32,000 nt of DNA, taken from the NCBI GenBank assembly GCA_965231145.1, contig OZ246420.1, positions 90,001 through 122,000 on the forward strand, written 5' to 3'. A program made the position numbers and the translations under genes. This document shows positions 1-32,000 of the stretch, piece after piece (position 1 is the stretch's first letter; each line of letters starts with the position of its first letter). The stretch comes from Candidatus Saccharimonadota bacterium. Its GTDB lineage: Bacteria; Patescibacteriota; Gracilibacteria; Absconditabacterales; Absconditicoccaceae. The notes under the pieces were generated by a model that had not been told where the DNA came from, ran no database searches, and saw only the letters and a list, made by a program, of their open reading frames with translations.

Positions 1-59
1 GAGAGATCTGTTCCATATCCCTTGATGAGGCTTTTCTTTTGGTCTTTTGAAATTGCCAT
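1..59 (-). CDS. First 19 codons of a gene that continues beyond the left edge of the window; product unknown
   Basis: ATG at 57..59 (minus strand) opens a frame reading MAISKDQKKSLIKGYGTDL to position 1. This is too short to assign a family. A 289-nt AT-rich spacer separates it from the gene end at 349. Confidence 0.3.
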   Translation of the reverse strand, partial: MAISKDQKKSLIKGYGTDL

Positions 60-348
60 CGTGTGCCCGTCATAATATAAAATAAAAAAATGTCCCTGAG
101 GAGAGGAACAAGGCATACAAAAAACATTGCAGTGCAATCTTATCTGTAGCCAATTACCTCGGTAGGAGATTGCTCATTAAATCAGCTAGAACGCTGATAC
201 CTACTGTCTTTGTATAATTGGTAACGATTCGTATTGCTCGAATCACAGATACTATACTAATTCACTATCTAAATACAAGAGAAAAAAGACACAAACACTA
301 GACAGAGATATAGGTCTTGCCTTGGTCTCTATCTAGAATCTCTGTTTA

Positions 349-2328
349 TTAGCCGGGCTTTTTGGTTTGTAAAAATGGGGTGGTTGTGAGTATGTCGCTC
401 GTTTTTAACTGCTTTGCGACGAACTCGTTTACTATGGTTGGAGAGATCGACGTTCATTTTTGTACATCGCTATTTACCGCATATGCCATAAATTTACGCA
501 TTTTTGAGCCAATATCGTTGGTCGCTCAGAGTAGGTTGTTCTTGTTGGCATCAAATTCCTCTTGGGAAATACCAGTTCCTGCAAGTACGAACTCTTTGAA
601 TTCTTTGCTTTGATTCACGATTGTGCTAAATGAGTCTCTAAAATTCTTACTTTGGGCTGAGATGTTTTTCTGCGAGACTATTTCTCTTATGGTCTGCAGT
701 ATCTGATTTACTCAGCCAGTCGAAGACTGTAGTAGTTTACTTTGTTCCGTGCGAGAGATGTCATTGTTTGATTCTTCCGATATGTTAAAGAGGTTTTTTG
801 TGCTCTTCCCAATATCGGTCTTGTAAAAAGATGTTGTTAATCTATTTGTTTGTTCGTCTATTTTGCTATTTGCATATGCTCCGCTGCTGAGAGAACTGAC
901 AGCATCATTTTTCGTTTTAGTGAGTGATGCAAGCGATGTCAACCCTGTGCCCATAGGTATAATGTTTGAGTTTGCAACGAGTTTCTCAGAAAAAGCGAAG
1001 ACGCTCGTCGCTGCGCTTTTCGTAAATGTCGAGAATGATGCTCCTATCTTGAGGAGCGACCATATGAGTACGACACTGAACCCTGTCACGATAAGATATC
1101 CAATCATACCACCGACAAAGTTACCCATCTCCTTAAACAGGTTTCCATCTATTGTTATCTCTGTTCCTGTTGCCTTATCTTTCAGTGTGGATGTCTTATC
1201 TTTTGAGCTTATTTCAATTTGTTCGATCTGTTTGTTGAATTCGCTTCCTGACTTCTGATCTCCTGGATCTCCGCCGAGTACATAGTAGATACCGATACTT
1301 AATATCATGGCGAGAGAGACAGCGCCTATCATGGCGACTGGCTGAAAAATAAGCGCTAACACATCGCTGAATTTTCAAAATCATATGCTCGTCTTTGCAT
1401 CGCCAAGTTTTTTAATAAATCCAGGTGTCATTTTATCATCAAACGATCGAGCAATCGCCGCAAGCGGCGCGAATGCTATCCGCATTCGTAATCTGAACAT
1501 CCTGATGAAGTTAATAACGATGAGTGCGAACATGGGTACGGTGAACGCGATCAATAGAAACAATTTGATGAAGAGGCCGATGGTGAAGTTTTTCCAGTTT
1601 GATATATCCTGGTTCATGATATCGTAGTCCTGAAACCTGAAAATAGCAGCTCCCATAAAGAGCAGTGGTCCGCTCATGTCATTGAATTTCCCAAACATTT
1701 CTTCGATAGTCTGGCTTCATTCGTGGGTGCTAAAGAGTGGTGCATTTTCTTTGAAACTGACATCTATTCTGACAGGGACAGTGACAGCGAGCTGCATCAT
1801 TTTACTTTTGCTCATGTCTTCCGTCGAGCCTTGGATGAACTGCGTAGGGAAAGCGCCGACTGCTGCAGTAGCGACATTTGAGAGGTCGATGAGTGCTCCC
1901 ATGAGAAACCAACTCATCTGGATCAGCACGCCTGCGAGAAGGTATCTTGGAAGTATCTTTTGTATTTCAAAGGCATCTTTGGTGAAAAATGATTTGAGAA
2001 TGCCGAAGAGAAACAAAAATCCAAGCACGAAGTTTGCGATGTTTTTCATATAGTTCCAGAGCTTGAAGAGGGCGCTATCGAGGTGGAGAAACGTACCATA
2101 TACAAAATCATTGGACATAAGTTTTCCTGCGAGAAAAGCAAGTAGCATCCATCCCCATGAGAGGAATTTGAGTATCGCATTGAATAATTGTGTCATCCAT
2201 GACGATCCTGCTACTGAGCTTGCCACTCCTGTAGCAGCAGAAGCTGCGTCTGCCGCAAAAGTAGGATGTATCCAGAGGACACATGCCACTATTGCTATCA
2301 TGACTCAAAGCTTCACGCACTTACTCAT
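349..2328 (-). CDS. Polytopic membrane protein with signal peptide, 659 aa; TrbL/VirB6-like topology (tentative); paralog of 2368..5313
   Basis: Standard-code ORFs 712..1362, 1381..1698 and 1717..2301 share one frame. The only interruptions are TGA (tca at 2305, 1717, 1381, 1375, 712, 526, 454). The first in-frame TAA is 349..351, and an in-frame TAA at 2338..2340 bounds the start. ATG 2326..2328 gives MSKCVKL-G-VMIAIVACVLWIHPTFA|ADAAS, a signal peptide. There are at least 6 long hydrophobic segments. The blocks NIANFVLGFLFLFGIL and LLAGVLIQMSWFLMGALIDLSNVATAAVG align with the neighbouring gene. Confidence 0.85.
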
Positions 2329-2367
2329 ACTGCTGTTTTACATTTTGAATTTTAAATTTTATACTCA

Positions 2368-5313
2368 TTACGGTGTTGGTGGTGTAGCATTAGCTGGTGG
2401 AGTGTTTGCTGTTGTGTTAGTTCCTGATCAGCCGTTAGGCACCGGCGGAGCCGGTTGTGCTGGTGGTGTCGCTGTTCCCGGGGTTGGAGCAGGTGTTGGA
2501 GTGGGATTATTTGTTGTAGGAATTGGTTGATTGGTATTAGTGTTTGTATTGTTCGTCCCTGGATTAGTAGTCGTAGTTGTCGGAGCTGCTGGCGCTGGCT
2601 GTGGAGCCGGTTGTGCCGGTGGTGTTGGTGTCGCTCCTGGGTTTGTCGCTCCTGTCGCACTACCAGTTGGATTTACCGGAGGATTGTTAGTTGGGGGTGT
2701 CGGAGTTGGGTTAGTATTATTTGTATTTGTATTGGTAGCTGGAGGTTGTTGTGTTGGCTGTGTAGCAGGCGTGTTGCCAGTTTTTTGATTGAGCCGTTTT
2801 TCAAACTCGTTCGTAAATTTCGTTGAAGGACTATCTTTTTCAAACTTTTTTTTCATTTTTTCTATATCTTCTTTGCTGATCTTTATGTCGTCCCAATTTG
2901 ATTCCTTCGTAAGAGTTGTCGTTTTCTTTCCGTCTTTAGATTTTTTCGAGAAACCGTTGCCGGTGAGTGTATATGTTGAGCCTTCGGTATCTGTATATGT
3001 TGTGTGATCATCAGACAAAGCTCATCCAGAAGTCGTTGTGTCGAGAGCATCAATAGCGCTTAGTATTTGTTGTTGAGTTCAGCCATTTGCTCACTCTCTT
3101 CCTGTATAAAGAGAACGAATCTCTTCTTTGTTGAGTCCAAGTCACTTGTTGAGATATTCAAGGAATTTTTTGTCACTAAATGCATCGTCCACGCTCTTGT
3201 ATGCTGCACCTAAACCGCCAACTGTTGCAAGCTTGTTGACAAGATTGAGTCCAGAATCTCCATACTGTGCAAGGTCAAGGTTGTTTCACTTTGCATTGAA
3301 CATATTTCAGTCTGAAGGTGCGTTATAGAGTGCGCCGGTTGGTCACACCAGTTGTTGTACGGCTTGTGTCGCGCTGTTTTTGTCTTTGATGGTTGGTAGG
3401 AGAGCATTCATTTGTTCTTTCCCTTTTGATTTTTGATTTGTAAGAGTTCATTGGAAGAGGTTTTGTATTGCAGGAGAAACAACTGTACGAGCATTTTCTG
3501 ATACAGAGTCGTTGATCTGTCAGGTAATTCTGTCTCCTGTATTTTTAAGTGCCGCGATACTTGTAGGAGCGCCTCATGGCATAGGGATAATAGGAGCAGA
3601 GGCAAGCATGTTTCTCGCAAATTTATCCATGCCTTTAACGGTGTTCTCTGTGAAACTATTCCCCTTCATTGCAGTCATAAGGATGGTCCACATAAGTCCA
3701 ATTCCACAGATGTTGAGAATGATCCAAGGGAAAAAGTCTATCATGCCGGAGATACCAATATCCTGTGCAGGATTGTCGATACATAGTTTTGTGATGACGA
3801 GATTGATACATGTTTTGTTGCCCTCGCTCGATGTATCCATGCCGGTATCTTTAAGTGTGTCACCCTTCGTTAAGCCCTCGCTCAGAACAGAAAGAAACAC
3901 AATACTGATGCTAATAGCAAACGTGACGATAACCGGAAGAAAGACGAGTGCGATAACTTTGCTGACGCCAAATTTTTCCAGAGGTCAGAGCTTTTTTCCA
4001 AATCATAATGCCTCGGCAAGTACCAAAATCGGAGAGAATGCTATCATAATCCAGAGTACGGCAACTCTGATAATGAGAACGACACATAGTACAAGAAGAG
4101 GAAACAGATAGGCGATACCGATGATCGCTTTGATGATCGCTTCCATAGCCATCGAGCCATTTGACTTGTAGACGTTTACGTTGATACTTCCAAGGTTGAG
4201 AAGGCTTCCGTAGAGTGCATAAAATGCTCCTTGGTAACCCTTACCTTTTTGTGCGATGTTGGAAATGGTTTGACACAAAGATGCGTCGCTATCACATCAC
4301 TTGCCGCTGAGAAAATCTGTCTGTGAGTCGTGGAGTGCTTGTTTCAATGCGTCTGAACCTGTTTCGATTTTTTCACCAGCTTTACTAAATGAAAGGATAT
4401 TGTTTCCAAACATACAATATTCTTTATTTATCTCAGACCAGCTGACATTACTATTTCCTATCTTTGCTGAGCTGTCGATGCTTCCGTCTTCTCATTTTGG
4501 CACACCAAACGCGCTTGCCCATTCGTCGTCTTTTAGTAGCTTCTGATTTTTTATGGCACAAGGAAGGTAGTATTCGCTCTCGTTTTCTTCACCTTGTTTT
4601 GGATAAGTATAGAGTATGACAAATCACTTGTCTGTTGTTAGTACGTTACCAATGTCAGAAATATTCATGCTTGCTTTTACTCAAAACACAGGTTTTTTAC
4701 CCGCATTTTCATCTTTCAGTAGTTTTAATGGCAACCCTCCGATACCCACTGTCGCAACAGTAGAAACGTCGATAAGAGCGCCCATCACAAACCAGCTCGC
4801 TTGGATAGCTATACCTGCTAACAGAAGCTCTGTTATCTTTTGCATAGGATTTTTTGCGCCACCGATATTGAAGATGTAGGCAAGGATAGATCGTAAAAAC
4901 AAGAATCCAAGAGCAAAGTTTGCGAAATTCTTCACAATATTCCGGAAGGTAAAGAGTGCGGCGTCGAGCTGAAAATAACTTCCGTAGACCATACCGTTGT
5001 CGAGTGAAAGGCCTGCTAATGCGAGAAATGGCCATAGAAGCAGGTAGATGATCTTGAGTACAATTTCCAATGTGTCAGCGAAATCCTGTTTGCTATCTGT
5101 ATCTTTTTTCGTTGTCGTTGTGCTGCCCCCGTCTTCGGTAGTTCATTCGCTTGCGCCGCCGCCATCTGCGCTTTCTCCTACGCCTGTTGCAGAAGCATGA
5201 GGCACAAAAGATGAAGAATGAATGTCGAAAGGAGTATGTGAAAAAAACAGGGCAATACCCGCGCCCGAGGCAAGAAGAAATGTGATGAGTTTTTTTCGTA
5301 TTTTTGTTCTCAT
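2368..5313 (-). CDS. Polytopic membrane protein with signal peptide, 981 aa; TrbL/VirB6-like core (tentative), then a soluble region and a Pro/Thr/Asn-rich tail; paralog of 349..2328
   Basis: ORFs 5143..5364, 4681..5070, 4003..4278, 3574..3900 and 2428..3018 lie in one frame. I translated every gap and found 18 in-frame TGA and no TAA/TAG until TAA 2368..2370. ATG 5311..5313 gives MRTKIRKKLITFLLASGAGIALFF. The blocks NFANFALGFLFL and LLAGIAIQASWFVMGALIDVSTVATVGIG match the paralog. Confidence 0.85.
2371..2790 (-). repeat. Low-complexity Pro/Thr/Asn/Ala-rich C-terminal tail of gene 2368..5313, with imperfect direct DNA repeats
   Basis: The translation is dominated by PTPTPP, TNTNTN and PAQPAP units. 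gagccggttgtgctggtggtg at 2448 recurs as gagccggttgtgccggtggtg at 2604, 156 bp away. Confidence 0.8.
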
Positions 5314-5387
5314 TTTGCTGGCCAGCCAAATAAAGAAAAGCTCTTTATCTAGTATATCGGGCAAGCGCGCAAAAAGAAATTATAGAC

Positions 5388-6656
5388 CTATGAAAGGATG
5401 TGTAGCTCGTCTAAAAGTGTGCGATATTTGTCAAACTCCTCTCAAGTTCTTGACTTAATGAAATCTTTAACGATAATCTTTCGATCTATAAGGCTTTCTT
5501 GCAAGTTTTTCTGTGCAATCTCAAGTGTGAATGACATATCCGGAGAAAATGTTGTTTTTCTCTTTATGGCCCAGTCTTTCACAGTATGAAGAAGCTCCGG
5601 TTCGATATGCTTCTGGAGATCGTCATAGCCCAGTGATTCGGAAACGAGAGTGACGTGGGTGAGGGACGAGGGATAAGTGACGAGGGATACGTCTACTGAT
5701 CGGGTGCCACCGAAGTTTTCCAGTATTTTTATGTCAATCATTTTCTGGTGTTTTTCTATGGTAGCTTTTTCTATTTTTTCATCTGCAGAAAGAGTCAGGA
5801 CGATGTAAGGATTGATAGCTATTTGCTGTGCTTTTATGGTGTTAGTTTTCGCATCAACTTTATAGAGAAATTTGTGATGATCTTGTTCGAGAGGAGATGT
5901 ATATCGAACACTTCCCGCACAGAAATAATTTTTATATGCAAAAGGCATATGTATATGTCCGGAAATAAGTTCGATGTTTTTATTGTCCAAAAAAGCAGGA
6001 GAAAGCGCAATATCTTTGTAATCAAAGATGGCTTGCTGTCATGGGAATTTCGTATTTGCTATGTAGTAGTGGTGGATGATGGTAAGTTGTGGATATTTCT
6101 CAACGTATTGTTGTAATGTTGCATTTATAAGACCGCTTAAGCGTTCATTAGCATTTTTGGAGTTTAGTAGTTGAGTTATAGATGCATTGAATGCGTCTTT
6201 ACTTGAGGCGAGCAGAGACACATTCAACCCGGCCTTTTGCCCGGCAGGTGCGTCTGTACTCAGAGAGTTTATATGTTTAGAAAATGGGAAAAAGAGGATG
6301 TTTTTTCATTCTATCTCGTGCACTTCCGGCTCGGTAATAAAACGGATGATATTCTCTTTTTGCGGGAGAGCGTCTGCCATTTTTTTTCACTCTGCATAGA
6401 CGAACTGCTGACCAATCCAGTCGTGATTTCCGGCTAATACATACACATTTTTCCCACTTTTCCGAAGCGATAAAAAGAGGTCAAACAGGCGCGCAAGCGC
6501 CGTACGATCGTAGCTGAACATATACATATAATCGCCCAAAAAAATGATGTTTTTCTCATCATTGTTTTCTTGTGCGTACGATGCAATAGAGGCGATTATT
6601 GCATCGGCGTGTTTTGTTGTAATATGTATGTCACCGATTAATAACATAATTCTCAA
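5388..6656 (-). CDS. SbcD/Mre11-family metallophosphoesterase (putative DNA exonuclease subunit), 422 aa
   Basis: ORFs 6387..6656, 6039..6227 and 5442..5990 lie in one frame with 4 in-frame TGA (6387, 6306, 6039, 5442). The stop is TAG 5388..5390. Calcineurin-like phosphoesterase motifs occur in canonical order: GDIH, GDY, GNHD, HH, GHIH. The start is TTG 6654..6656 or ATG 6645..6647. Confidence 0.8.
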
Positions 6657-6887: not shown

Positions 6888-7535
6888 ATGCATGCACAAT
6901 ATTCAGATGACTACAACCAATTCTTGCTTTCTATTAACGCATTTGAGGTTAATTTTGATTTGCCTCATAAGCTCTCATCAGGCTTAAAGATTCCTTTCTA
7001 CTGTGATAATAGGCTTATCTTTTCGTACTTTCATGTCTATGAGTATGCGGTTCATGCTCTCAAAGATATGATACCAACTTATTTCCCGGAAATAGATGTT
7101 ATTGCTCCTGTTTCTACCGCTGGGCTGCCTCACGGATCAATATTGGGCTATCTTTTTATGAAGCCCCTTGTTTACATTCGTCCTGAAGCGAAAGCTTATG
7201 GTAAGCAAAAGCAAATAGAGGGCATATTTGAGTCAGGGAAAAGGGTGCTGATCGTAGAAGATCTGGTATTCACAGGAGAAGCAAGCTTACGGGCAGTGAG
7301 TGCTATAAGAGAAGCCGGCGGTGAAGTGGTTGGCGTCGTTAGCCTTTTCTCTTATGATCTTGCTATTGCTCAAGAGGCTTTCAAATCACACAATGTTGCG
7401 TTATGTCCTCTTACTACTTTTGCATCGCTTATCGCGACGGCTGAGGCTAAGGGAAATATTACTTCTGGGGAGAAATCTCATCTTATGGCGTGGCATAAAG
7501 ATCCATTTAAATGGAACACGCCTATGGCTGTATAA
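6888..7535 (+). CDS. pyrE: Orotate phosphoribosyltransferase, 215 aa
   Basis: The ORF is uninterrupted and ends at TAA 7533..7535. It carries the PRPP-binding motif VLIVEDLVFTGEAS. The N-terminal block LLSINAFEV...SGLKIPFYCDNRL resembles Bacillus-type PyrE. It contains no TGA codons. Confidence 0.9.
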   Translation: MHAQYSDDYNQFLLSINAFEVNFDLPHKLSSGLKIPFYCDNRLIFSYFHVYEYAVHALKDMIPTYFPEIDVIAPVSTAGLPHGSILGYLFMKPLVYIRPEAKAYGKQKQIEGIFESGKRVLIVEDLVFTGEASLRAVSAIREAGGEVVGVVSLFSYDLAIAQEAFKSHNVALCPLTTFASLIATAEAKGNITSGEKSHLMAWHKDPFKWNTPMAV

Positions 7536-9541: not shown

Positions 9542-10696
9542 TTATTTGTCTCTTTGTTGGACATTTCTGAGTTTATAGTAGAGCTGATTGAGTGGTGTAT
9601 AGATACGGATAAGGGATTTTCTGAAATCCACGAGATCTTCATAGTATGCAAGTAGCCCTATATGTACTGGAAACGTGGTCTGCATATTTTGCAATGTCTT
9701 CTCCGTATAGAGGATGGCGTCAGCGCTTAGTGTGATCTCTTCGTTGAGACGTATCGTTTCCTGCTGTGCTTCCTGTGAGATATCGCTGAATGCGCGGAAT
9801 TCATTGTATTCGGGGTATTGGATGCTTTCCTGAGCAAGCGTAATAAAGAGTTTATAGAAGAGGAGTTCGTTATAGAGAAGGTTATGGAAGCTGTCCCATG
9901 CGAGCGTGTTTTGATTGTCGAATGAGCAGACAACGAACTGTTTTGCATCTTTTTCACACTCCTTTGACTGGTTTTTGAGGAGTTTTTCCGCGTCTATGTA
10001 TTTCGTCTTGTCTGACATTTCCTTCACGTTTTCTATGTACTCTTTGAGGACGTTTCTTGTTTCCGGGTGGTTACAGGCAGCTTCTTTATCAGTTCCTTCC
10101 TTGTCGCTCATATAAAGCGTATCCTTCTTCTTACAGATGCTTTCTCCCGAGCCGAAGTATGTATCAGAAAATGCTTTTATGGCCTCGTCGGTAGAATCAG
10201 ACTGATTACTATAAAGTTGTACCAGTTTCACCTTACTTATATCGTTGATAACGAGCGCAAAGAGCTTTGGAAGGAAGAGAGCAAAGTCACATGAAGTCAT
10301 GTCTCCATCTCGTTTGCAGTCTTCTACTTTAAGGTCTTCCCGGTCATATTCCTTGGTAAACTCTTTGATCTTTTCCATCTCGACGTCGCCTTTTGAACAG
10401 AGCAAGCCGACAAAAAACGATGATTGCGGATCATAATAACGTCATTTGGCGCTAGGATCTGGGAAGCCCTGAGACTTTGACATGGCTGTACAGTATGATT
10501 CGATGAGTCCTTTTCTGCTCTTATTTTCCTGGAGCGTAGAAGAGATGCTTTTCATCATGTTTGTCGTAAATCACTGCTTCGTCGTGTCAGCTGTATATGC
10601 CTCTTTGGAAGATTTCCAAAATATCAGTGCGATGATCGCACCGAGGCAAATGATACTGATAGACACTCTACGGAGTGATGTTGATGAATAACGCAT
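9542..10696 (-). CDS. N-terminally anchored Cys-rich protein of unknown function, 384 aa
   Basis: ATG 10694..10696 gives MRYSSTSLRRVSISIICLGAIIALIFW, a transmembrane anchor. The in-frame TGA are at 10571 and 10442, and the stop is TAA 9542..9544. The start lies 7 nt after the TAA of the upstream gene. Confidence 0.8.
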
Positions 10697-10703
10697 GACG
10701 TTT

Positions 10704-22400: not shown

Positions 22401-25111
22401 GCAGGAGCTATTGTATTTTTCAGAGCATCATTACCATCTGAGTTGATATAGACAAGCTCATAACCACTTGCCTGATATCATGGGACAGATCCCATAGAAG
22501 GATTGTCTTGTTTCGTGATATAATTTTTCGTCACGTTGGCTATTTTCTTGTTAACGTCAAATGAGTGTTCGTTGTTCTTCAGATCGGTAAGAAGATCTGT
22601 TGAAGATGGTTTTTCAGATCGTCCAAGATTTTGCCAATAAAGTACATCAGCGATCGCTTTGATCGTCTCTTCACCGAGGGCGGTTATGAAAAAGTCTTCA
22701 GGAAGAAGAGCGTATGAGCGACTCTTAGGTGTCGCGTATGGATTGACTACAGCCAGTTTGTCAAATGCGATGCTCTTTGGCGCATAGTGTGTCGCAGCTG
22801 CGCTATTTTCTGTTGAGAGAGTTACATTTATAGCACTTACTTTCTGCTTGAGATATGCCTTTATACTCTCTGTTATCTCCTGAGGTGATTGGAGGGTTAG
22901 TTTTTCTCATTGTTTCTTATAGACAGAAACATTGTAGATATTTGGATAGTCAAATTTTACTGTACCACCACCTATACCTTTAAATGCAACAAACCTTGCG
23001 CTATCGATAGGTCTGTCAGCAGTAAGAGGACTCATGCCTTTCACTTCTTCAGGTGTCGGTGATGAGTGCGACTCAAGAGTGTCTATTGTTTTGTACACAT
23101 AATTCTCACCACACTCATGCGTACTTGTGTTGGTGTTTGTATTTGTCACAAAAATATGATCATTGTAATCAGCAGTTGCGACCTTAGAGAAATATTCAAC
23201 TTCTATAGGGGCCTTGATCGGATGACCATTGTATCGATTTTCATTGACCTCTCCTGGAGGTACTATTTCTCAACATATTACTCGTGGGGCAATGCGAAAC
23301 TGTTGTGTTCTATGTAGGAGTGAGTTATTGAGTTCATCAAGAAAGAAAATATCTGTATTCATTTTTTTAAGAGTGAGCTTTGATCCCGCTATGTCGTAGA
23401 CGGGTCATCCAATGGTTGTATCAAAGCGCGGATTCCATGCCATCTTTGGATCGTTTTGCTTGAGCTGGAGCGTGTTCCCATCTACATTGAGAGGAGTCAT
23501 GCCTCCTCGGTATTTGTTTACAAAATCATCAAGTGTTTGTCTGTCGTTACACTTTCTTGCATTGTAGAGTTCGATATCTTTAGATATAAGTTCGATATTA
23601 TAACCTCTAGAGCTTTCTACCTGTCTTGAAGAGATACCATATGAAGCACCTATGGATCTTGCTGTATAGTCCAATGGTATATCGTCCTGCTGACCTTGAG
23701 TAGCATAATTATATGATGTCAGGTTTTGTCGACTTCATATGTTTTTCCATGTACCACGATAGATAGAGATGTCATTGGTAGATGTTACATCAAAAGCACT
23801 CTTTCCAAAATAGAAATTTTCATATCTTCCCACGAGTTTCTTTGGTACAAAATCCGGTGGTAAAACTGGTGGTACAGGAACACACTCATACTCTTCGTAG
23901 ATTAGTGGAATAGGAATATGAAGAGCATAGTTACCTGTTTGTAGTTTTTCGTAGAGAGCCTTTTCAAGTACGCTATTTGCATCGAACAGCGCCGTGCTTG
24001 TTAAGGTGTCTTTCACCACAGTTTTTTTGATATGACTATCAACGTTGGCGGCGTTCCATCTTCCACCTGCAATAATGTTTTGATCGATGTTTGTAAGATA
24101 CTCGGGTGCGAAGAGAGAAGTATATGGCTGTACGAGAGAAAGCAACGCTGTTCACATCATAAGGGTTGGTATCTTTGCGGTCTCGTTTCCTAATTTCTCA
24201 AGCGTTTCAGCGCTATCCGCGGCGATAGCTGTTAATCACTTTTTCCATTTGTCTATTTCTGCTTTATAAGTACTTCATTCAGTTGATAACTGTGAGTAGG
24301 ATTCTTCATTTGGAGAAAGCTTTTGAGCGTCATCACCTATAAGCGATAGGGCGTTATTATTTGCAGCGTCTTTGAAGTAGTCGAATATAAGATTTGTATA
24401 CCTGTGATAAGTGATGTCTTCGTGAAAAAGAAAGTTGTTAATATAACCAGAGAGAAACTGATCAGCAAAATATTTTTTTAATCCAATAAAATCATCGTAC
24501 CGTATTTTGGTAGATGTGTAATTTATTGGATTTTGTTTGTAGTTTCTCAGCTTGTCGAAAAACTTAGTGTATTGATCATCCTGATCTTCAAAGTTGATCA
24601 TGCTTTGCCATATATCTGCCTTGTGATCGCCATCGTCCTCAGTAACAAAATAGGTAGAAGCTGGATCGTATACATAACTAGGTTTCTCAAGGTCTGTATA
24701 TGGGTATATGCTTGGATAGATATAGCTATTTTCACGTATAACCGGCAATGGGATATCTCCTATGAGGATAGTTCCTATAAGAGAAGAAGGGTTTTTTTGG
24801 TTTCCTTCTTGGTAAAGATTTTCTAATATCTTCCATATGTCATAGGCCTGAAAATTGTTTTTATCGATAGGCAAGAGGATGGCTTTTGTATTGTTACTTT
24901 GCGACTGGAGATATTCCTGAGCATACCAATTTATGTTTTCTTTATGCTTATCGTAAATGTTCTTCTCTACGAATACGGCAATGATATTTTCGTGTATTTC
25001 TTCTGCAGCATATACGTTGCTAGAAAAGCCAAAAATCCACTGTGTGAACGAGTGGGAAAAGAAGTACACGCAAAGCAATATACCTATGGCTGTTTTTGTT
25101 TTCAACGACAT
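13430..25111 (-). CDS. Giant secreted/anchored multidomain surface protein, 3,893 aa, with FG-GAP/integrin-like and Ig-like repeats and Pro-rich and Gly-rich linkers
   Basis: Sixteen listed minus-strand ORFs from 14681..14893 to 24275..25132 all lie in the same frame. I translated every gap between them and the whole of 13430..14681. There are 45 in-frame TGA and no TAA/TAG until TAG 13430..13432. ATG 25109..25111 gives MSLKTKTAIGILLCVYFFSHSFTQWIFGFSSNVYA|AEE. An in-frame TAG lies upstream at 25145..25147. Confidence 0.85.
19270..19800 (-). other. FG-GAP/VCBS-like (integrin alpha beta-propeller type) repeats inside the giant protein
   Basis: Three Ca-binding-type loops occur: DVDKDGQKD (19655..19681), GDANGDSYED (19505..19534) and HDMDGDNKVD (19337..19363). 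They are spaced ~50-57 aa apart. Each is followed by a hydrophobic strand and then an N-x-G turn (ILKNKGG, VYKNNG-G, KIFYGG). Confidence 0.6.
20702..21730 (-). other. Tandem bacterial Ig-like (Big_1/invasin-type) repeats inside the giant protein (tentative)
   Basis: The repeats read ...PFSVM-G-YDAY-G-NAVEQSTNTFRLSSSQGKI... and ...GQVFAYDRWNNPIDAPVSINLHTIGGIKINGSSSGQVTTATNGSAPFTLSSEKAAGTQYIYATLA. They follow the pattern V-x-a-x-D-x-y-G-N-P-v ... T-d-x-n-G-x-A ... G ... v-x-A typical of these domains. Confidence 0.5.
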
Positions 25112-25254: not shown

Positions 25255-25275
25255 CTTGAAAAGAAAATAAGTGTT

Positions 25276-26961
25276 TTATATGCCGTTGATAGAGAAGAAG
25301 TTTTCCATGTCTGTCATGTAGTCGTCATAGAGACCCTGAAGTGTTTGATCTTCTGGAGATAATCTCAGTGCGTTTCTTGTGTCAAGGAATGGGATGTATA
25401 TATCACTACAAAACTCTTTCACGTCGTCGAGGTTTATGCCCATGCTTCTTCCTTGTACACACATATAGTAAGCAATACCTTGTGTTGTAGTTTCATCATC
25501 GCTATCTCTATTGTTCTCAAGAATATCAAGTCTTGCAGAAAGATCAGCTATAGTGTCTCTATTTGCGATGTACTGATCGTACATATCTTGAATAGTATCA
25601 ATGTCAGCGTAGTCGAGTCTGAGATCTTCTACTGTGTCATTGAGAGCTTTCACTGCTTCGATCACGAGAGCCATGATGTTAGGATACTGTACAGACTTCT
25701 TTCCATCCGGTTGCGTCTTTACGAGCTGTGGAAATACTGCTTCTACTTCCTGCGCGAGAAGACCTACATCATGTCTTCCGTTTGCTATCCAGTCGAACGT
25801 ATATCCATTGAGATCCATAATTTTATCTAGGGGATTTGTGATCTTTACGATATTTTCTTTCAGGGTCTCATCAGAGATGATATATACTGAGTCTGTGAGG
25901 ATGTCTCCTTCTACATGAAGCGTTGCTCCTGGAGTTGAGGTTCCGATACCAACATCTCCACCGCTATAATATATCACGCCAGCTCATCCATCTCTCCAGT
26001 AACCACTAGCTGTTACTGATGATGGCATAACGACCAGGTTACCCAATGCGTCAACTCCAAGATTTCTTACTCACAATCCACCGTATGAACTGAAACGAAC
26101 CTTACCCACAACGTCAAGCGCTCCTTCCGGAGTATAGTTGTTGATACCTACGCGAGTACCTGTTACAAAGAATGCAGTCGCTGCAGCTGGAGTAGTACTA
26201 CCATCTGGATAGAGTATCTCACCACTTGTATCTACTCTGAAAGGTCCTTTTACGTGAAGTTTGGCAAGAGGAGTATCAAGACCTACTCCAACATTTCCAT
26301 CATTATCAGGATAGAAAGTTCCATAGTATATATCATAAGGATTTCAAGGAGAAACGTGCCATAAAGATGCTCCAGATGCGCTAAATGAACCGCCTCCTGA
26401 AAACGCATCTCCACATATAATCGCTCCTGTAGAAGTCCATCCCATAAGCACGCCTGACACACCACAACTTCCTGCTGAAATAATAGGCACGCATGTAGGT
26501 ACTCCTGAAGCTACACCCACAAGTACTTCACCGGCAGGACAGCTTACTGTTGTCGTACCACCTCCTGAACCCGCACCTCCTGTGAGGACGAACGAGAGCA
26601 TTTCAGTTGTGATAGAACCTGGTGCAATGTCTCCGCTTCCGATAAGTCCTCTCGTGATATACCCAAGAGAGTTAAGTCTTAGTACTCCTTCCGTTGGGCC
26701 ACCTAAAGAGCCGCTGTCCACCCAGATACCACCTGTACCAAGTACGATTTTAGTTGATCCTGATGGAGATCCATCTGTAGTGATGCGAAGTTCTCTGAAC
26801 GTACCAATAACATTGTTAATGGCGCTTTCGATAGCAAGATCGGCGTGAGTAAATGAAAGAGACAGTCACGCAAGTCCTATAAGAGCACACACCATAGTTA
26901 TTCCCTTTAGCAGAGGATGCTTTGGCATATGCTTTGTAAGATCTGTTTTGTTGTATAGCAT
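25276..26961 (-). CDS. Secreted tail-fibre-like protein with C-terminal peptidase-S74 intramolecular chaperone domain, 561 aa
   Basis: ORFs 26344..26721 and 25276..25977 share a frame, with in-frame TGA at 26866, 26344, 26071 and 25984. The stop is TAA 25276..25278. The start is ATG 26959..26961, or ATG 26926..26928 which gives MPKHPLLKGITMVCALIGLA-G-LSLSFTHA|DLA. The unit (N/D/R)VG(V/I)G-x(2)-TP-x(3)-LHV-x-G is repeated. The protein then reads ISDETLKENIVKITNPLDKIMDLNGYTFDWIANGRHDVGLLAQEVEAVFPQLV...VQYPNIMALVIEAVKALN. Confidence 0.85.
25620..25875 (-). other. Peptidase_S74-type intramolecular chaperone (auto-cleaving) domain of gene 25276..26961
   Basis: The signature S-D-x-x-L-K-E-N-I ... 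G-Y-x-F-x-W ... G-(L/V)-x-A-Q-E-V-E ... P-x-L-V ... Y-x-x-(I/L) ... A-(V/I)-K-x-L is known from phage tail-fibre and endosialidase C-terminal chaperones. The candidate cleavage Ser codon is 25873..25875. Confidence 0.7.
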
Positions 26962-27012
26962 GATGTAGAGAATATATTAATAAAGAAGTTTAATTATGTT
27001 GATTAATCTTTC

Positions 27013-30000
27013 TTATCTAGGTATGGATATGCCGTTGTCTCTGAAGAAGGTTTGAAGATTTATCAAAGCTAGATTATAAGCGCCTTCTAAATCTCTATTT
27101 TTTGGAGCACTCTCATGATTTTCCTTTGCTGTTTGGTAGGTTGGATAGATGGTGTTACATAGATTGTCGATATTTTGTGGATTGAGGCCATGTTCATCTG
27201 TTCCATTACATATTTCTTCTGAGAGAAGTTCAATCGCTGATTTTTTGCTTGTTGGTTGCTTAGGATTTCTTGCGTCCCATGCTTCTCCATTTTCGAGGGA
27301 GGCGATACGCAGTTCAAGTATCGCTATCTGATCTTGCTGTGCTTCCAGTCTTGCTGCTCATGCATTCATCATCTTTGCATCGAGTTCTTTAAGTGCAGAG
27401 ATAATCCCCGCAAGCAGATTTGGATATTCAACAGCGCGTATGGTTGTATCGCCTTGTCACTGCTGTCATTGTTGTTGTCACTGCTGGGTTTGTCATAAAC
27501 CACCTTGTGCTGGTGATGAAGGAGTTCATCCTATATCTCTGCTGCTTACCGTAAATGATCTTACGGCGCTTGGATAGATAGAGGCAATTTCTTGAGCTAC
27601 AAGTCCTACATCATCTCTTTGAGAACGAATCCATTTAAATGTATATCCTGTCAATGATAGTATATTGCTAAGGCCATTGGATATCTTGTTGATATTTTTT
27701 TTCACATTTCGATCTGATACTATATATGTCGCATCCGTAAGGATATCTCCATTGACATGAAGAGTAGCACCAGGAGTATCAGTCCCAATACCTACAGATC
27801 ATCCGCTGTATGAGAGTATGCTATTTCAAGCGTATAGATTTTCATCCCATTGTTCTCAGAGTACTGACATAGAAGATCATGTCGTGAGAAGTTCTCCCCA
27901 AGAATTAGCTCCTAAATATGAATATCCTGGTGTCAATACCGAGCGGAATAATATGTTACCTACAACATGAAATGCAGTGTAAGGTGTTTCGGTATTTATA
28001 CCAACCCTAGATCATATCACAAAAATATTAGCTCAGTTATAAGGGATCGTTGTTGCTCCGATAACTCATGCGCCACCACCTGGAGGAGTAAGGGCGGCAT
28101 TTGGAGCGCTTGCTCCTGTGAAAGGAATGTAAGTTGGCATTTGAATACCAAACGAATGATATAGCGTTGTTCCTCCTGAGTCAAATGTATCATGACAAAG
28201 TGATGTGCCCGAAGGTGTGATTTCTATAGTCATGTCTACAGCTGGTTGAACAGCAGGAGCGTCGTATGGAGGATAGAGTATGCTTACGCCCAATAATTCG
28301 TTTGCCTGTGTTGTAGGATGAACGATGGAGCAATCTTCTGTCATAGGGTCTAGGTCGCAAGAACAATTTACAGAACTTATGCTTGTAGACGTTTGTATAA
28401 CAGGGCTTGTAAGTGCGCGAAGGTATCATATGAGTGTTCAGCTAGCAGGTGACTGATATGCATCATAGTATGGAACGCCCCCCAGTAGATAATTATCGTA
28501 ACATGTTCGTATAGACGTGCTAAGCATTGCTCCCGTTGGTTGATATGCATCTACGATCGTTCCGCTTCCGGCTCAACAGTTTTGAGTGGTTATGTCGACA
28601 TCGCAATCACATCTTGGAGTGTTTGGTATTCAGCTTGGATTTGATATGGTTCTTGAAAAATTGTACGTATATCATAAAAACCCACCAGCAGTATCAGAGT
28701 ATTGATATGGTGCTTGTATTAATCCATTATTGTCTACTCTAAATGTAGCAGCTGTGCTGAATCCTGTTCCTCCTGTTCCAGAAACTCATCCTGTAGTGAG
28801 GATAGTTCCATATCTTCTAAAGAAGTGTCCAGGAAAGTATTCCATGTCTGTATATGCCAATCAGCTTATACCTACATCCATACACATCGGTCCATCGTCA
28901 CCATTTGTGAAGCCATATCCACAATCAAAAGAGTCTGGATCCAAATCACATGCACATCTCGGAAGAAGTTGTCCAACCGGAGGATAAATAGGAGCTCCAG
29001 ATCCTGTATATTCTCCACGAATAATGTTTGGCACAGGACTATACGTAAGTGTTCCTCCTACTGGAGATCAGCTACCAGTATGATATGTTACCGTAAGTCT
29101 ATGCTCTACAGAAGTGTTGGTTGTTATGTTGAAATCAAAACAAGCGTTTAGTCCTGGATGAATCCATATTGCCGGAGATCACTGTATTGTTGTGGATGGA
29201 CTTGAACATGCAGCATCTGTTGCATACATGTTTGTGTCACATGGGCAGCGGAAACCAGCTGCGAGCCCCTCTACAAAACCGTACTCATACTCGAGACTGG
29301 TAGCGCCTCAAGTACTTCCTTCACATACCATGCCAAGATCAAATTCCATTCATCCGTACCACTGAGATAGATACTCAATACCCCCAGACGTGAATGATTC
29401 AGTACACTGCGAATCTCCTTCGTTATCATTTGTGGCAATGTATTCCATAGGATACGAAGGGTATGGTCCTGTTCCACCAGCATAACGAAGACATTTTCCG
29501 GGAGTTGTTGGATCTTCTGTTTCACATGCACACATTGGCAATCCTGCTGAAACAACGCTCGTATAACCAGGACTTCACATAGGGTATTCTCCTGCGAGTT
29601 GCACGAAAGCGTAGCCAGTTGACGGAACCAGATTACAAGCACACGAACTATTTGTCACTGTTTTATGAACATATTGTAATCCTTCTGATCGGTGTTCAAG
29701 TTGTACTACTCATCATGACATATAGAGTTGTACACACTGTTCTCCATAAAAGCTCCCCGTCATCTGGGCATTGAGGAAAATTGATCATGTAGCAAAAACA
29801 AGACACTTCCCCGGATACGCCGGATCAGGATTGAAACAATTACAAGGCGTCATAGATGCAAAATCCGAAAAATATGGAGAGCTTGGTGTTATAGGAGCAT
29901 CCCCAAGAGTGTAGACATATCAGTGGACAGTTGTTGACACACTACTTCATGACCCTGCTTCACAGAGAGTTGTGTTGGAAGGATAAGAAACATGAAGCTT

Positions 30001-30762
30001 TGTAAGTGGAGTGTCGCGCCCTACCGCAACTCCCTCGAAACATGAGTCTCCGTCAAATCACATCCCTGGCGTATAACTTTGACCAAGTCATCCCATCCCT
30101 TGTTGCGTAGGGTCTTCACATCCTTCGATTTTGCTGTAGTAGATATCGAAAGGAGTAATAGACGAAATTGTTCGTAATTCTCCAGAACCCGCGCTAAATG
30201 AACCACCTGTTCCACTACAATCAGGAAGTCCAAGACTGATCCATCATACAAATGTGGTTCAAGGAGTACACATGGGACTTGGTAGTATGCTTACAAGCGG
30301 AGCTGGTGTACAGATCGCTGTTCATCAAGAAAATCACGCTATCGCTTCTCCTGCAGGACATGAACCATCGCTAAATCAACCAACTCCGCCTCAGAGAGAA
30401 TATGATAAAATGTCAAATGCAAACATCTCTGTCGTGAGGCTTCACGAGGCAATGCGAGATCCATCTATCGTATCTGTACGAGAAAAACGTCCGTCCGGAG
30501 CGATGAGAATGTCTTCTGTGCCTACAGCGTCAGGAAGCTTTATAAGATGGTCATTCGTTCCTGAAAACTCTACGAGAGCACTGCTTGATGCGTCTCCATC
30601 TGTAGTGATAAGGAGTTTTTGAAAATAGGGAATATCCCTCAGGATGCTTGTATCAAGAGTAAGAGCACTTACGCTTTCTGAAATAAGAGCTGCCGCTCAG
30701 AGGCTAAGAGCTAGCGTGACAAGCCGCTTTTTGTTTCACTGCTTTTGTTCCATAACGAACAT
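27013..30762 (-). CDS. Secreted tail-fibre-like protein with ~6 Cys-motif modules and a C-terminal peptidase-S74 chaperone domain, ~1,249 aa; paralog of 25276..26961
   Basis: I translated the frame codon by codon from 30786 to 27013. It contains 42 in-frame TGA and no TAA/TAG between TAA 30784..30786 (upstream bound) and TAA 27013..27015. Starting at ATG 30760..30762 or 30751..30753 gives MEQKQ-G-NKKRLVTLALSL-G-AAALISESVSA, a signal peptide. It shares SLTTEM, CPAGE and VGIGTDTPGATLHVNGDILTD with the paralog. It also has SDRNVKKNI...GYTFKWI...VGLVAQEI...VEYPNLLAGIISALKEL and a similar C-terminal end (FFRDNGI versus FFSINGI). Confidence 0.8.
27370..27717 (-). other. Peptidase_S74-type chaperone domain of gene 27013..30762, interrupted by a Gln/Gly insert
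   Basis: The signature matches that at 25620..25875. An extra segment, SSRDIG-G-TPSSPAQGGL-G-QTQQ-G-QQQ-G-QQ-G-QGD, lies between the AQE and YPN blocks. Confidence 0.65.
28330..29844 (-). repeat. Six protein-level modules (~80-115 aa period), each carrying a C-x-C-(D/E/F)-x-(D/N/E)-(P)-x(4-9)-C motif
   Basis: The six motifs are TPCNCFNPDPAYPGKC (29803..29844), PMCACETEDPTTPGKC (29491..29532), FRCPCDTNMYATDAAC (29206..29247), PRCACDLDPDSFDC (28921..28956), PRCDCDVDITTQNC (28576..28611) and VNCSCDLDPMTEDC (28330..28365). Confidence 0.7.
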
Positions 30763-31056
30763 TGATTCAATGGATAAAACAAATTACTTTATGCTATGTA
30801 ATGCTGCTTTCATACAAAATTGCTACTGAAAATATATAGCAAGTGTGAAATTGAGTAACCAAAAAACAGAAAATATTATATAACCATACGCGCAGAGAGC
30901 GAGTGCTTCTCTAGCCATAGTTCAATCGCTATTTTGTTTTTTAAGATAAAATAGAATAAAAATTGATTGTTTGATAACTCTTTTTTGTCGCAGTAATACT
31001 GTTTTTTCTTGATTATTTAGTGATGTATTTTATAACGGTATGATTATATATTATAT

Positions 31057-31084
31057 TTGACTTATTTGTCGGATTGTATATAAT
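31057..31084 (+). promoter_or_regulatory. Sigma-70-like promoter candidate for the S8 protease gene
   Basis: TTGACT (31057..31062), a 16-nt spacer, then TATAAT (31079..31084). It lies ~145 nt upstream of ATG 31230 in an AT-rich divergent intergenic region. Promoter consensus in this lineage is not established. Confidence 0.35.
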
Positions 31085-31229
31085 ATAAAAGCGCGTTCCA
31101 TTTCGGTCGAATGCGTGGTTTCTTAACAGCTTACTCTTTCGTTCAAGGTTGCCGGCAAGCTTCCTTGGATAAATTTATGATAAAAAATTTTTCAAACAAA
31201 ACATTCAAAAAAACATTAAATTTGAGAAT

Positions 31230-32000
31230 ATGAAAAAACTACTTATTTTGATGAGCTTTGTTTGCTCATTTTGTGTTCCTGTTTTCGCTCAGTTCGTAAC
31301 GAATGAGATACAGGTTGTTACTAAAGCGCCTATTGTGTGGAATAGTAAAGAACAGTCAGCGGAATTCCTTGAAAAATTTCCTGCGGGTTCTAAGGTTGTT
31401 AACTGTGCTGACATAACATTGTTCAGCCAGCAAGAAGACCTTGTAAGGCAGGGGAGATATTGGGGAACTCTATTTCTTGTTCAACTGCCCACCTCGAACG
31501 CAAGTACACTAGTTTCCACTAAGCAAGCATTGCTTGAAAATGATGAAAGTGTTGTTAAGGACGTCTACTTAAATGTTGTAGGCTCTTCAAACTCGTCTAC
31601 TCCAATTACTTTTTCAGACCCTGTTTTTCCTTATGACATGCAGTATAACGCTGCTGCGATAGCGGGGGGTGTAAAGTACACCGGCTGGCAACATGCTAAC
31701 GGCTATATATTCTATAATACCGATAGAATATTAGTTGGAGTAATAGATGGAGGCGCTAATTTGTCTCACCAGGATGCGGTTAATTCCTATTATATTAATG
31801 CTTTGGAAATAGCGGCAAATGGTATTGATGACGACATGAATGGAAGGATTGATGACGTGAATGGTTGGAATTTTGTTTCTAGTAATAATAATGTTGCTGA
31901 TGACAATCCTATCGGACATGGCACAGTTGTTTCTAGTGAATTGGGCGCTCGTAACAACAATTCAAAGAATACTGTTGGTTACTTGTCAGACTCAATGTCT
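31230..32000 (+). CDS. Subtilisin-like serine protease (peptidase S8) with signal peptide; 3' end outside the window
   Basis: ATG 31230..31232 opens 257 codons with no stop of any kind to the window edge. This ORF is absent from the supplied track. The N-terminus is MKKLLILMSFVCSFCVPVFA|QF. The catalytic Asp block is ILVGVIDGG (Asp 31746..31748). The Ca-loop-like segment is NGIDDDMNGRIDDVNGWNF. The catalytic His block is DNPIGHGT (His 31917..31919). Confidence 0.85.
   Translation, partial: MKKLLILMSFVCSFCVPVFAQFVTNEIQVVTKAPIVWNSKEQSAEFLEKFPAGSKVVNCADITLFSQQEDLVRQGRYWGTLFLVQLPTSNASTLVSTKQALLENDESVVKDVYLNVVGSSNSSTPITFSDPVFPYDMQYNAAAIAGGVKYTGWQHANGYIFYNTDRILVGVIDGGANLSHQDAVNSYYINALEIAANGIDDDMNGRIDDVNGWNFVSSNNNVADDNPIGHGTVVSSELGARNNNSKNTVGYLSDSMS

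Follow-up and report, generated by a model that had tools for sequence, protein, structure and literature searches.

Evidence for glycine at UGA and tryptophan at CGA/CGG in an Absconditabacterales chromosome segment next to a gene pair free of in-frame TGA

INTRODUCTION

UGA is read as glycine in NCBI translation table 25, the candidate division SR1 and Gracilibacteria code, which reportedly goes back to Campbell et al. and Rinke et al. in 2013. The table 25 tRNA-Gly(UCA) has the features G1:C72, C2:G71, G3:C70, and U73. The CGA/CGG variant code uses a UCG-anticodon tRNA with tryptophan identity, which has G73 and no A20.

[quoted passage not shown] Table 25 is the code of the GTDB class JAEDAM01 (Absconditabacterales and BD1-5), whose hallmarks are the loss of release factor 2 and a tRNA-Gly(UCA) (bioRxiv 10.64898/2026.05.24.727570). 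Both UGA to glycine and CGA plus CGG to tryptophan are listed as known (bioRxiv 10.64898/2026.04.02.715157). Code-25 CPR bacteria are targeted by code-11-compatible phages (Liu et al. 2023, mBio, PMC10746230).

Here we describe a stretch of 32,000 nucleotides, called the window below. It is almost certainly a chromosome segment of an uncultured member of the Absconditabacterales (SR1, Patescibacteria/CPR) in which UGA encodes glycine, CGA and CGG encode tryptophan, and UAA and UAG are the stops. Both recodings are known from this group, and the finding, though real, is an ordinary one, save for a gene pair at the right edge.

RESULTS AND DISCUSSION

Lineage and genomic setting

The contig encodes rplJ, rplL, rpsB, tsf, an rpsF-rpsR gene, rpoB, rpoC, hflX, and trhO. 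The last four contain in-frame TGA. Compared with GTDB species genomes, rpoB matched best at 92, 90, 78, 77, and 74% identity, and the next match was at 45%. The genome with the 74% match is titled Candidatus Absconditabacterales. These comparisons place the organism, as far as gene sequences indicate, inside the recoded Absconditabacterales clade. Gene order is conserved on a 936-kb chromosomal contig of a relative, GCA_030429145.1. A second assembly, made from a separate run, contains the identical sequence, and a third assembly has these genes as well. The related contigs L005 to L009 and L086 to L090 show the same pattern of TGA, and TGA and GGN interchange in them at orthologous sites.

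A split rpsB was considered and rejected; the gene is intact and is followed by a separate membrane protein gene. ARAGORN reported no tRNA in the window, in approximately 50 kb of the source contig (76 kb), or in 11 related loci. The L10 leader was the sole match of the Rfam search.

TGA as a sense codon

Frames were read from stop to stop with TAA and TAG as the only stops. Once the ORFs split at TGA were joined, the window contained 12 genes that cover approximately 95% of it. The first-pass annotation had held that TGA codes for an amino acid here and that standard-code calling fragments the genes. The ORFs do join when TGA is read through, and their orthologs are continuous. It had also counted 154 in-frame TGA in 10 genes, and the recount gave exactly this number. 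The stop-to-stop total was 159, of which 5 lie upstream of true starts (4 ahead of the phosphoribosyltransferase ATG at 6888 and 1 ahead of the ATG at 13424). All 11 complete genes end at TAA (9) or TAG (2), each at the stop codon already listed for it. TGA is not the final codon of any gene in the window or flanks.

The longest gene carries the strongest pattern. Sixteen ORFs between 14681 and 25132 had been described as sharing a start position of 2 modulo 3. This is exact, and all 16 lie in the frame of the giant gene and end at TGA; the span holds 18 minus-strand table 11 ORFs of at least 60 aa. The chain was said to be free of internal TAA and TAG, and the giant frame indeed contains 0 TAA, 45 TGA, and 1 TAG, which is its own terminator. 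The other two frames of the span contain 154 and 133 TAA plus TAG. As a control, TAG or TAA was read as sense. No merging followed, and the longest frames were 340 and 558 codons, versus 3,904 for TGA. Chance had been judged an unlikely source of the pattern, and the longest frame free of TAA and TAG in 200 first-order Markov randomizations was at most 411 codons.

Gene ends had been placed 5 to 30 nt from the next start. This is roughly right for the pairs at 5, 21, and 30 nt and too narrow for the others; most pairs are separated by 5, 21, 30, 39, or 51 nt, and one by 164 nt. The restored N termini look like signal peptides by eye, as had been suggested (e.g., MKKRLLKI[G]VLL[G]LAGTLYGVAFA). 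Homologs that ended at the TGA positions would have spoken against a sense codon, and the orthologs read straight through them.

TGA is sense for glycine, so gene callers that use the standard table break most genes at each TGA. The public Logan gene calls on the same contig are fragmented in this way; they cut rpoB into four and the 3,893-aa surface protein into dozens of fragments.

Gene content of the window

Genes are on the minus strand except where the plus strand is named. Most of the window proteins had no Pfam family.

A membrane protein gene lies at 349..2328 (frame 349-2337). It encodes 659 aa with seven TGA and three CGA/CGG codons and ends at TAA. Its orthologs in L006 to L009 are uninterrupted at the TGA positions. 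The CGA/CGG codons at ORF codons 284, 286, and 297 (counted from 2337) are TGG in relatives. The product is a paralog of that of the neighboring gene at 2368..5313 (frame 2368-5379), which encodes a membrane or secreted protein of 981 aa with 18 TGA, four CGA/CGG, and a TAA stop. Orthologs of this neighbor are 39 to 55% identical, and its TGA codons aligned with GGN or TGA 20 times. Its CGG at ORF codon 146 (from 5379) is TGG in three relatives.

The metallophosphoesterase gene (PF00149) lies at 5388..6647 (frame 5388-6665). It encodes 419 aa with four TGA and four CGA/CGG codons and ends at TAG. Relatives have GGN or TGA at each of the 12 aligned TGA cells, and TGG at ORF codons 68 (CGG) and 254 (CGA), counted from 6665. 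The phosphoribosyltransferase gene (PF00156) is on the plus strand at 6888..7535 (frame 6687-7535). It encodes 215 aa, has no in-frame TGA, and ends at TAA; the four TGA of its upstream open frame all precede the true ATG. The source contig was located by means of this gene.

Four further genes end at TAA. A secreted protein gene at 7592..9511 (frame 7592-9541) encodes 639 aa with four TGA, and it has homologs in L086 and L087 with gene order kept. The gene at 9542..10756 encodes 404 aa with two TGA; its start is not certain and could lie further downstream. A second secreted protein gene, at 10704..12149 (frame 10704-12170), encodes 481 aa with seven TGA, two of them within the signal peptide. 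The third, at 12171..13424 (frame 12171-13505), encodes 417 aa, and the C-terminal tail of its product is rich in glycine. TGA makes up 21 of its 70 Gly-family codons and occurs inside glycine runs (e.g., GGFGGIG[TGA]GAGG[TGA]GG).

The giant gene lies at 13430..25111 (frame 13430-25144, 3,905 codons). It encodes a secreted surface protein of 3,893 aa with 45 TGA and 19 CGA/CGG codons and ends at TAG. Its homologs carry FG-GAP repeats. Three of them (P0001, P0002, and a 3,898-aa gene of L088) have no break at the window's TGA positions, and P0001 is named at NCBI as an FG-GAP-like repeat protein of Candidatus Absconditabacteria bacterium. A comparison of the giant protein with metagenome contigs gave 79 pattern matches and no relatives; relatives were reached instead by searching proteins and then looking up their contigs.

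Two paralogous secreted protein genes with S74 domains follow, and both end at TAA. The gene at 25276..26961 (frame 25276-26976) encodes 561 aa with four TGA and a Peptidase_S74 intramolecular-chaperone domain. Its product is 72% identical to the ortholog in L089. The gene at 27013..30762 (frame 27013-30783) encodes 1,249 aa with 42 TGA and five CGA/CGG codons. TGA makes up 28% of its Gly-family codons, and of the 27 non-gap cells in the paralog alignment, 10 pair the TGA-encoded X with G.

Glycine at TGA

The choice between tables 25 and 4 had been left open by the first-pass annotation. The evidence picks table 25. TGA occurs at invariant glycines of RpoB, RpoC, and the HflX P-loop. Compared with PDB homologs, RpoB has SL[TGA]PGGL at ALGPGGL and TKL[TGA]PEE at TKLGPEE, RpoC has ITV[TGA]PQL at ITVGP, and the HflX P-loop has VGIV[TGA]YTNAGKS at VAIVGYTNAGKS. 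The first TGA of TrhO is G in both PDB matches; the second is G in the best match and D in the other.

The same residue was found within the clade and outside it. Across 11 genes and five related genomes, the contig's TGA aligned with G 40 times, with TGA 24 times, and with W never, and the relatives' own TGA aligned with G 152 times and with W never. Tryptophan stood opposite TGA in 0 of 368 aligned cells. A standard-code outgroup of 74 rpoB and 62 rpoC bacterial sequences, tallied only for TGA in columns at least 80% conserved, had glycine at 72 of 80 occurrences and tryptophan at none. The window genes from 13430 to 30762, aligned with L088/L089, had TGA opposite GGN 37 times, opposite TGA 15 times, and opposite TGG 0 times. 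Composition agrees: glycine is a normal 8.26% under table 25, and tryptophan is an abnormal 2.36% under table 4.

Use of TGA differs among genes. It makes up approximately 18% of Gly-family codons across the window and 28 to 30% at most in a single gene. It makes up 0 to 3% in ribosomal protein and RNA polymerase genes, with approximately 3% in rpoB/rpoC. The ribosomal protein genes that adjoin the window have no TGA and thus give no evidence on the amino acid at this codon.

[quoted passage not shown] By the same analogy, release factor 2 would be lost, and release factor 1 alone would terminate at UAA and UAG.

Tryptophan at CGA and CGG

The alignments indicate that CGA and CGG have moved from arginine to tryptophan in the native genes. 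The contig's CGA aligned with TGG 17 times, with CGA/CGG 12 times, and with canonical arginine codons 0 times. Its CGG aligned with TGG 8 times, with CGA/CGG 7 times, and with arginine codons 0 times. AGA, AGG, CGT, and CGC align with one another. For the window genes alone, compared with L088/L089, CGA/CGG aligned with TGG 9 times, with CGA/CGG 8 times, and with arginine codons never. Of the 53 and 18 cases tallied in the native genes, none had CGA/CGG opposite a canonical arginine codon. At codon 145 of the RpoB ORF (from L003 15545; codon 139 from the ATG), this contig has CGA, and five of five relatives have TGG.

The outside anchor is one invariant column in a relative's gene, the other comparisons being within the clade: the closest relative has CGG at the tryptophan of FMPW, a residue that all 74 outgroup sequences share. 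The column of the HflX CGA site is not conserved among PDB homologs, so it gives no outside anchor.

The window genes contain 32 CGA, 14 CGG, 119 AGA, and 86 TGG in 10,186 codons. CGA and CGG are used 31 and 14 times per 10,000 codons, and together they make up 35% of the tryptophan codons. [quoted passage not shown] The GC content is 41.6%. CGA/CGG may be decoded by a UCG-anticodon tRNA of tryptophan identity, judging from work on the clade.

The first-pass annotation had missed this reassignment, and it had also missed that the right-edge gene (31230 onward) stands outside both recodings. A scan of all 64 codons found no further consistent reassignment. It flagged AGT and AGC, with 13 and 6 scattered observations and no consistent residue.

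Alternative explanations

UGA is tryptophan in the code of the Mycoplasmatales and in that of some insect endosymbionts and recoded phages. That code (table 4) predicts sense TGA and termination at TAA and TAG equally well, and what separates it from glycine is the residue. Tryptophan is absent from all 368 aligned cells and all 80 conserved outgroup columns, TGA sits at the invariant glycines of three proteins, and the tryptophan content would be abnormal. The relatives are also Absconditabacterales, not Mollicutes, and tryptophan at TGA is highly improbable. The glycines likewise weigh against selenocysteine or occasional programmed readthrough in the standard code. Both mechanisms permit TGA inside genes, but the codon occurs at glycine rather than Cys/Sec positions, 154 times in 10 genes and as up to 28 to 30% of a gene's Gly-family codons. 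No gene in the window or flanks is terminated by TGA, and this explanation has next to no chance of being right.

The region is heavily disrupted under the standard code, as it would be if the long frames were unreal and the TGA codons marked pseudogenes or assembly or sequencing errors. TGA is the sole interrupter, however, with 0 TAA and only the terminal TAG in 3,905 codons, against 133 to 154 off-frame. The identical second assembly and the third, the related contigs with TGA and GGN interchanged at orthologous sites, and the TGA at invariant glycines of the essential rpoB and rpoC make decay or error exceedingly improbable. Recoded phages are well known, and two S74 (tail-fiber chaperone) proteins and a giant surface protein are somewhat phage-like. 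A stop-recoded phage or mobile element in a standard-code host nevertheless has very little chance of being the source. The contig carries ribosomal protein genes, tsf, and the TGA-containing rpoB, rpoC, hflX, and trhO, its gene order is conserved on the 936-kb chromosomal contig, and phage hallmark genes did not turn up.

The S8 peptidase and glutaminase pair

The S8 peptidase gene is on the plus strand, and its 5' part lies at 31230..32000 in the window (frame from 31173). The gene extends to 35249. It encodes 1,339 aa with a T9SS sorting tail and no TGA. The gene at 31230-35249 adjoins a protein-glutaminase homolog at 35412-36155 in window coordinates. Across four SR1-type contigs and one of uncertain origin, the pair has 0 TGA among 598 glycine codons. 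On the same five contigs, its CGA/CGG codons stand in conserved arginine columns and do not interchange with TGG. The S8 gene has a single CGA, in an arginine column. CGA occurs in the S8 gene at KFEP[CGA]PGEF, and the arginine columns of the source glutaminase lie at approximately codons 120 to 160. The pair does not follow the rule that CGA/CGG is tryptophan, unlike the native genes. The columns that hold the CGA/CGG sites of the source glutaminase are not conserved in PDB homologs and provide no external anchor.

Recent horizontal transfer was rejected as the reason why the S8 gene lacks TGA: in four diverged genomes the gene keeps its synteny and has no TGA. No close standard-code homolog of the S8 gene was found. 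High expression alone is an unlikely cause, since rpoB/rpoC keep approximately 3% TGA and use CGA/CGG for tryptophan. One S8 copy comes from a contig of a "Bacteroidetes" MAG (L091) and nests among the SR1 copies. The 1.2 kb upstream of it on L091 has no match and no long ORF in either code, and both mis-binning and real transfer fit.

The pair seems to be under standard-code rules. Unless ancient transfer combined with unusual selection accounts for it, selection would act in a standard-code cell, on a cassette that might move between the symbiont and a Bacteroidota-type host or be host-expressed. We offer this tentatively and consider it unlikely. Either route, if true, would amount to a novel form of cross-code interaction. 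If its non-recoding holds, the pair would bear on whether the altered code is a real barrier to gene flow between CPR symbionts and their hosts.

Comparison with known codes

For SR1 the recoding is textbook. The genome is one more lineage, relatively GC-rich, with heavy use of TGA and CGA/CGG. Where table 11 is used on public assemblies, the annotation of this contig and of its relatives is wrong. Table 25 alone mistranslates 46 window codons as arginine for tryptophan.

The genome resembles table 4 (Mycoplasma/Spiroplasma) in that UGA is sense and UAA and UAG are the sole terminators. It differs in the amino acid, which was tested and is glycine, not tryptophan, and in its unrelated lineage.

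The S8/glutaminase pair, with no in-frame TGA in a code-25 setting, resembles the phages of Liu et al. 2023 (PMC10746230). Unlike them, it is chromosomal and syntenic in four SR1-type contigs. The pair also keeps CGA/CGG in arginine columns, a point that is not addressed for the phages in PMC10746230.

The genome matches NCBI table 25 in its Absconditabacterales lineage and in the same fragmentation of standard-code gene calls. That table alters UGA alone, whereas the present genome also reads CGA/CGG as tryptophan. A further match is the code of Shulgina and Eddy 2021 (PMC8629427), in which the same clade has moved the same codon pair to tryptophan atop UGA as glycine, with AGA as the main arginine codon and CGA/CGG rare. 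The GC content of 41.6% here is above the 0.26 to 0.38 of their reassigned clades, and the use of CGA/CGG is near the "advanced" end described for GCA_002791215.1 (PMC8629427).

Genomic context and lineage

The phosphoribosyltransferase gene of the window (6888-7535, plus strand) lacks TGA and was therefore used to trace the source. This is a 76,398-bp contig from the assembly of run ERR4405439, in which the window lies in reverse orientation at 34860-66859. The gene set recurs on contigs of two other runs, of which that from ERR4405441 was compared and proved identical along its whole length. An L10 leader was found at 75-230 on the minus strand (Rfam, 45.2 bits; gathering score 44), immediately ahead of rplJ, whose start lies just outside the left edge of the window. 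To the left, the contig encodes rplJ, rplL, rpsB, tsf, an rpsF-rpsR gene, rpoB, and rpoC. To the right, it contains the remainder of an S8 peptidase gene, a glutaminase homolog, trhO, and hflX. The segment is cellular chromosome. A phage origin was rejected, because the flanks carry ribosomal-protein, RNA-polymerase, trhO, and hflX genes.

RpoB was 92, 90, 78, 77, and 74% identical to that of five GTDB genomes, and the next best match was 45%. The genome with the 74% identical RpoB is titled Candidatus Absconditabacterales, and NCBI labels the homolog of the giant protein Candidatus Absconditabacteria. On these matches, the source is identified as an Absconditabacterales (SR1) chromosome.

About 7 kb to the left of the window, at 14608-15177 of source-contig locus L003, a single 189-aa product matches both Pfam Ribosomal_S6 and Ribosomal_S18. 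This suggests a fusion of rpsF and rpsR. Four loci from related genomes (L006-L009) have orthologs of similar length.

The window also contains a cluster of surface-protein genes. A giant protein of 3,893 aa (13430-25111, minus strand), whose homologs carry FG-GAP repeats, is followed by genes at 25276-26961 and 27013-30762 (both minus strand). The products of the latter two are paralogs, each with a C-terminal Peptidase_S74 (endosialidase/tail-fibre chaperone) domain. All three proteins are secreted, and the gene order is kept in related SR1 genomes (contigs L088-L090). The cluster may have a role in host attachment.

Open reading frames and stop codons

The GC content of the window was 41.6%. 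Under the standard code it contained only short ORFs, the longest of 340 codons. With TAA and TAG as the only stops, 10 long frames on the minus strand and 2 on the plus strand cover about 95% of the window, and the longest has 3,905 codons (13430-25144). Taking TAG or TAA as sense instead gave no comparable lengthening of frames in the window. When the window was randomised 200 times (first-order Markov), no frame free of TAA and TAG was longer than 411 codons. In the giant frame, TGA occurs 45 times, TAA never, and TAG once, as the terminator. The other two frames of the giant-gene span contain 154 and 133 TAA and TAG codons.

The first-pass annotation had reported that the standard code fragments the large genes at in-frame TGA, and this observation is confirmed. 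All 11 of the terminators it listed are TAA or TAG. Its count of 154 in-frame TGA in 10 genes is exact once 5 upstream of true starts are removed. Between 14681 and 25132, the minus strand has 18 ORFs of 60 aa or more; as it described, 16 of them lie in one frame, and all 16 end at TGA. Public gene calls on the source contig, made with the standard code, are broken likewise; rpoB is split into four pieces.

The first ATG of the gene at 9542-10756 (minus strand), at 10756, would give a 53-nt overlap with the end of the upstream gene (10704-12170, minus strand). A downstream ATG is more likely the true start.

TGA encodes glycine

Alignment to solved RNA polymerases placed TGA at glycine in RpoB (SL[TGA]PGGL versus ALGPGGL and TKL[TGA]PEE versus TKLGPEE) and in RpoC (ITV[TGA]PQL versus ITVGP). 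The HflX P-loop reads VGIV[TGA]YTNAGKS versus VAIVGYTNAGKS. In TrhO, the first TGA is Gly in both PDB matches; the second is Gly in the best match and Asp in the other.

We compared 11 genes of the source contig with the 5 closest GTDB species genomes, reached via their rpoB loci. TGA of the source contig was opposite Gly in 40 cases, TGA in 24, and Trp in none, and TGA of the relatives was opposite Gly in 152 and Trp in none. Outgroups were 74 (rpoB) and 62 (rpoC) standard-code bacteria. At columns at least 80% conserved, 72 of 80 TGA fell at Gly and none at Trp. Alignment of the giant gene and both S74-domain genes with the chromosome of a close relative (L088) and a related contig (L089) put TGA opposite GGN in 37 cases, TGA in 15, and TGG in none. 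Homologous proteins do not end at the TGA positions: the L088 and L089 orthologs read straight across them, as do less closely related homologs whose NCBI and JGI annotations translate through TGA.

Trp content would be 2.36% under table 4 (TGA as Trp), and Gly content is 8.26% under table 25 (TGA as Gly). The gene at 12171-13424 (minus strand) has one of the highest TGA shares in the window (21 of 70 Gly-family codons); that of 27013-30762 is nearly as high. Its C-terminal third (12171-12560) is glycine-rich; about 20 of the glycines there are TGA encoded, and TGA occurs within glycine runs. Table 4 was rejected since TGA pairs with Gly and never with Trp. On the PDB, ortholog, and outgroup alignments, with which composition agrees, the code is table 25. 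The earlier proposal that TGA is sense, which left both tables open, is thus supported and narrowed to TGA as Gly.

CGA and CGG encode tryptophan

Ortholog alignments also point to a second recoding, absent from the first-pass annotation. Trp of the source contig was opposite "Arg" of relatives in 27 cells. Its CGA codons were opposite TGG 17 times and CGA/CGG 12 times, and its CGG codons 8 and 7 times. In native genes (those outside the S8 peptidase and glutaminase pair), neither codon paired with AGA, AGG, CGT, or CGC of the relatives; those four pair among themselves. At codon 145 of the RpoB ORF (from L003 15545; 139 from the ATG), the source contig has CGA and all 5 relatives have TGG. 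The closest relative has CGG at the FMPW tryptophan, which all 74 outgroup sequences share.

The genes of the window contain 46 CGA/CGG codons, including codons 68, 254, and 395 of the ORF at 5388-6665, 146 and 163 of 2368-5379, and 284, 286, and 297 of 349-2337. In window genes alone, CGA/CGG was opposite TGG in 9 cases, CGA/CGG in 8, and Arg in none. With these codons counted as Trp, the Trp content is a normal 1.30%, compared with 0.84% otherwise. When all 64 codons were scanned, none of the others deviated consistently; AGT and AGC were flagged, on just 13 and 6 scattered observations. By these alignments, CGA and CGG are read as Trp and not Arg in native genes.

Both changes have precedents. 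Absconditabacteria and Gracilibacteria read UGA as glycine (Campbell 2013; Rinke 2013; credited in Shulgina & Eddy, eLife 2021, PMC8629427). The same study predicted that CGA and CGG are both reassigned to tryptophan in Absconditabacteria, and suggested a UCG-anticodon tRNA reading both as the reason for their joint move. A 2026 preprint gives table 25 for GTDB class JAEDAM01 (Absconditabacterales and BD1-5), with RF2 loss and tRNA-Gly(UCA) as hallmarks (bioRxiv 10.64898/2026.05.24.727570). Another gives both codon changes as known (bioRxiv 10.64898/2026.04.02.715157). Both recodings are already described for the clade; the finding is therefore real and rightly interpreted, but known. No tRNA genes were found in the window, about 50 kb of the source contig, or the related loci, and the decoding mechanism proposed for this genome is inferred from the clade literature.

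S8 peptidase and glutaminase genes

The last gene of the window encodes a 1,339-aa S8 peptidase (31230-35249, plus strand; the window holds 31230-32000). The protein starts with a signal peptide and carries a T9SS type A sorting domain (TIGR04183; 35.9 bits versus a cutoff of 23). With the adjacent protein-glutaminase homolog, the gene spans 31230 to about 36155 (10959-15884 of L085, the overlapping source-contig locus). The S8 gene has no TGA among 116 Gly codons, and the glutaminase gene has none. Three other SR1-type contigs have the pair in synteny and likewise without TGA, and its neighbours on both sides are TGA-rich. Five S8 and four glutaminase orthologs (four SR1-type contigs and one of uncertain origin) have no TGA among 598 Gly codons. 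In TGA share, the pair differs from native genes at p = 3e-39. The SR1-type loci analysed contain 42 genes that have 40 or more Gly-family codons; only the four S8 genes among them are TGA-free, and rpoB and rpoC are next lowest (about 3%). Ribosomal-protein genes have no TGA. The S8 gene uses AGG more than AGA, and GGC makes up 27% of its Gly codons.

CGA and CGG in the pair fall in Arg columns. S8 column 534 is CGA here and AGG, AGA, or CGT elsewhere. In the glutaminase, columns 126, 127, and 152 hold a mixture of CGT, AGA, CGG, and CGA, and one of them is also Arg in the Chryseobacterium enzyme. No TGG was opposite CGA/CGG within the alignments of the pair, and neighbouring hflX and trhO show the usual CGA-TGG pairing (placement in the pair versus native genes, by columns, p = 6e-6). 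The Arg signal comes mostly from the glutaminase gene, and 2 of 5 S8 CGA/CGG sites in confirmed SR1 genomes are in hydrophobic contexts. In the source glutaminase, Gln aligns with the catalytic Cys. From its codons, the pair looks as if it were standard-coded inside recoded surroundings. We report this as unexplained and not as a claim.

Recent transfer is unlikely, as the orthologs are 41-70% identical and occupy the same genomic position in each genome. No close standard-code homolog of the S8 gene was found. High expression alone cannot account for CGA/CGG in place of Arg. Exchange with standard-code bacteria was weighed as a third explanation, on account of one further S8 copy. This copy lies on a 3.7-kb contig binned as "Bacteroidetes bacterium" (GCA_018267925.1, JAFDXO010000169.1). 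It nests among SR1 copies and is 62% identical to that of L088. This contig is either a mis-binned SR1 fragment or a case of gene exchange; its surroundings did not separate the two.

The recoding of TGA, CGA, and CGG is already known, and this pair is the part that deserves closer study. Its closest analogue in the literature is the code-11-compatible phages that code-25 CPR bacteria target (PMC10746230).
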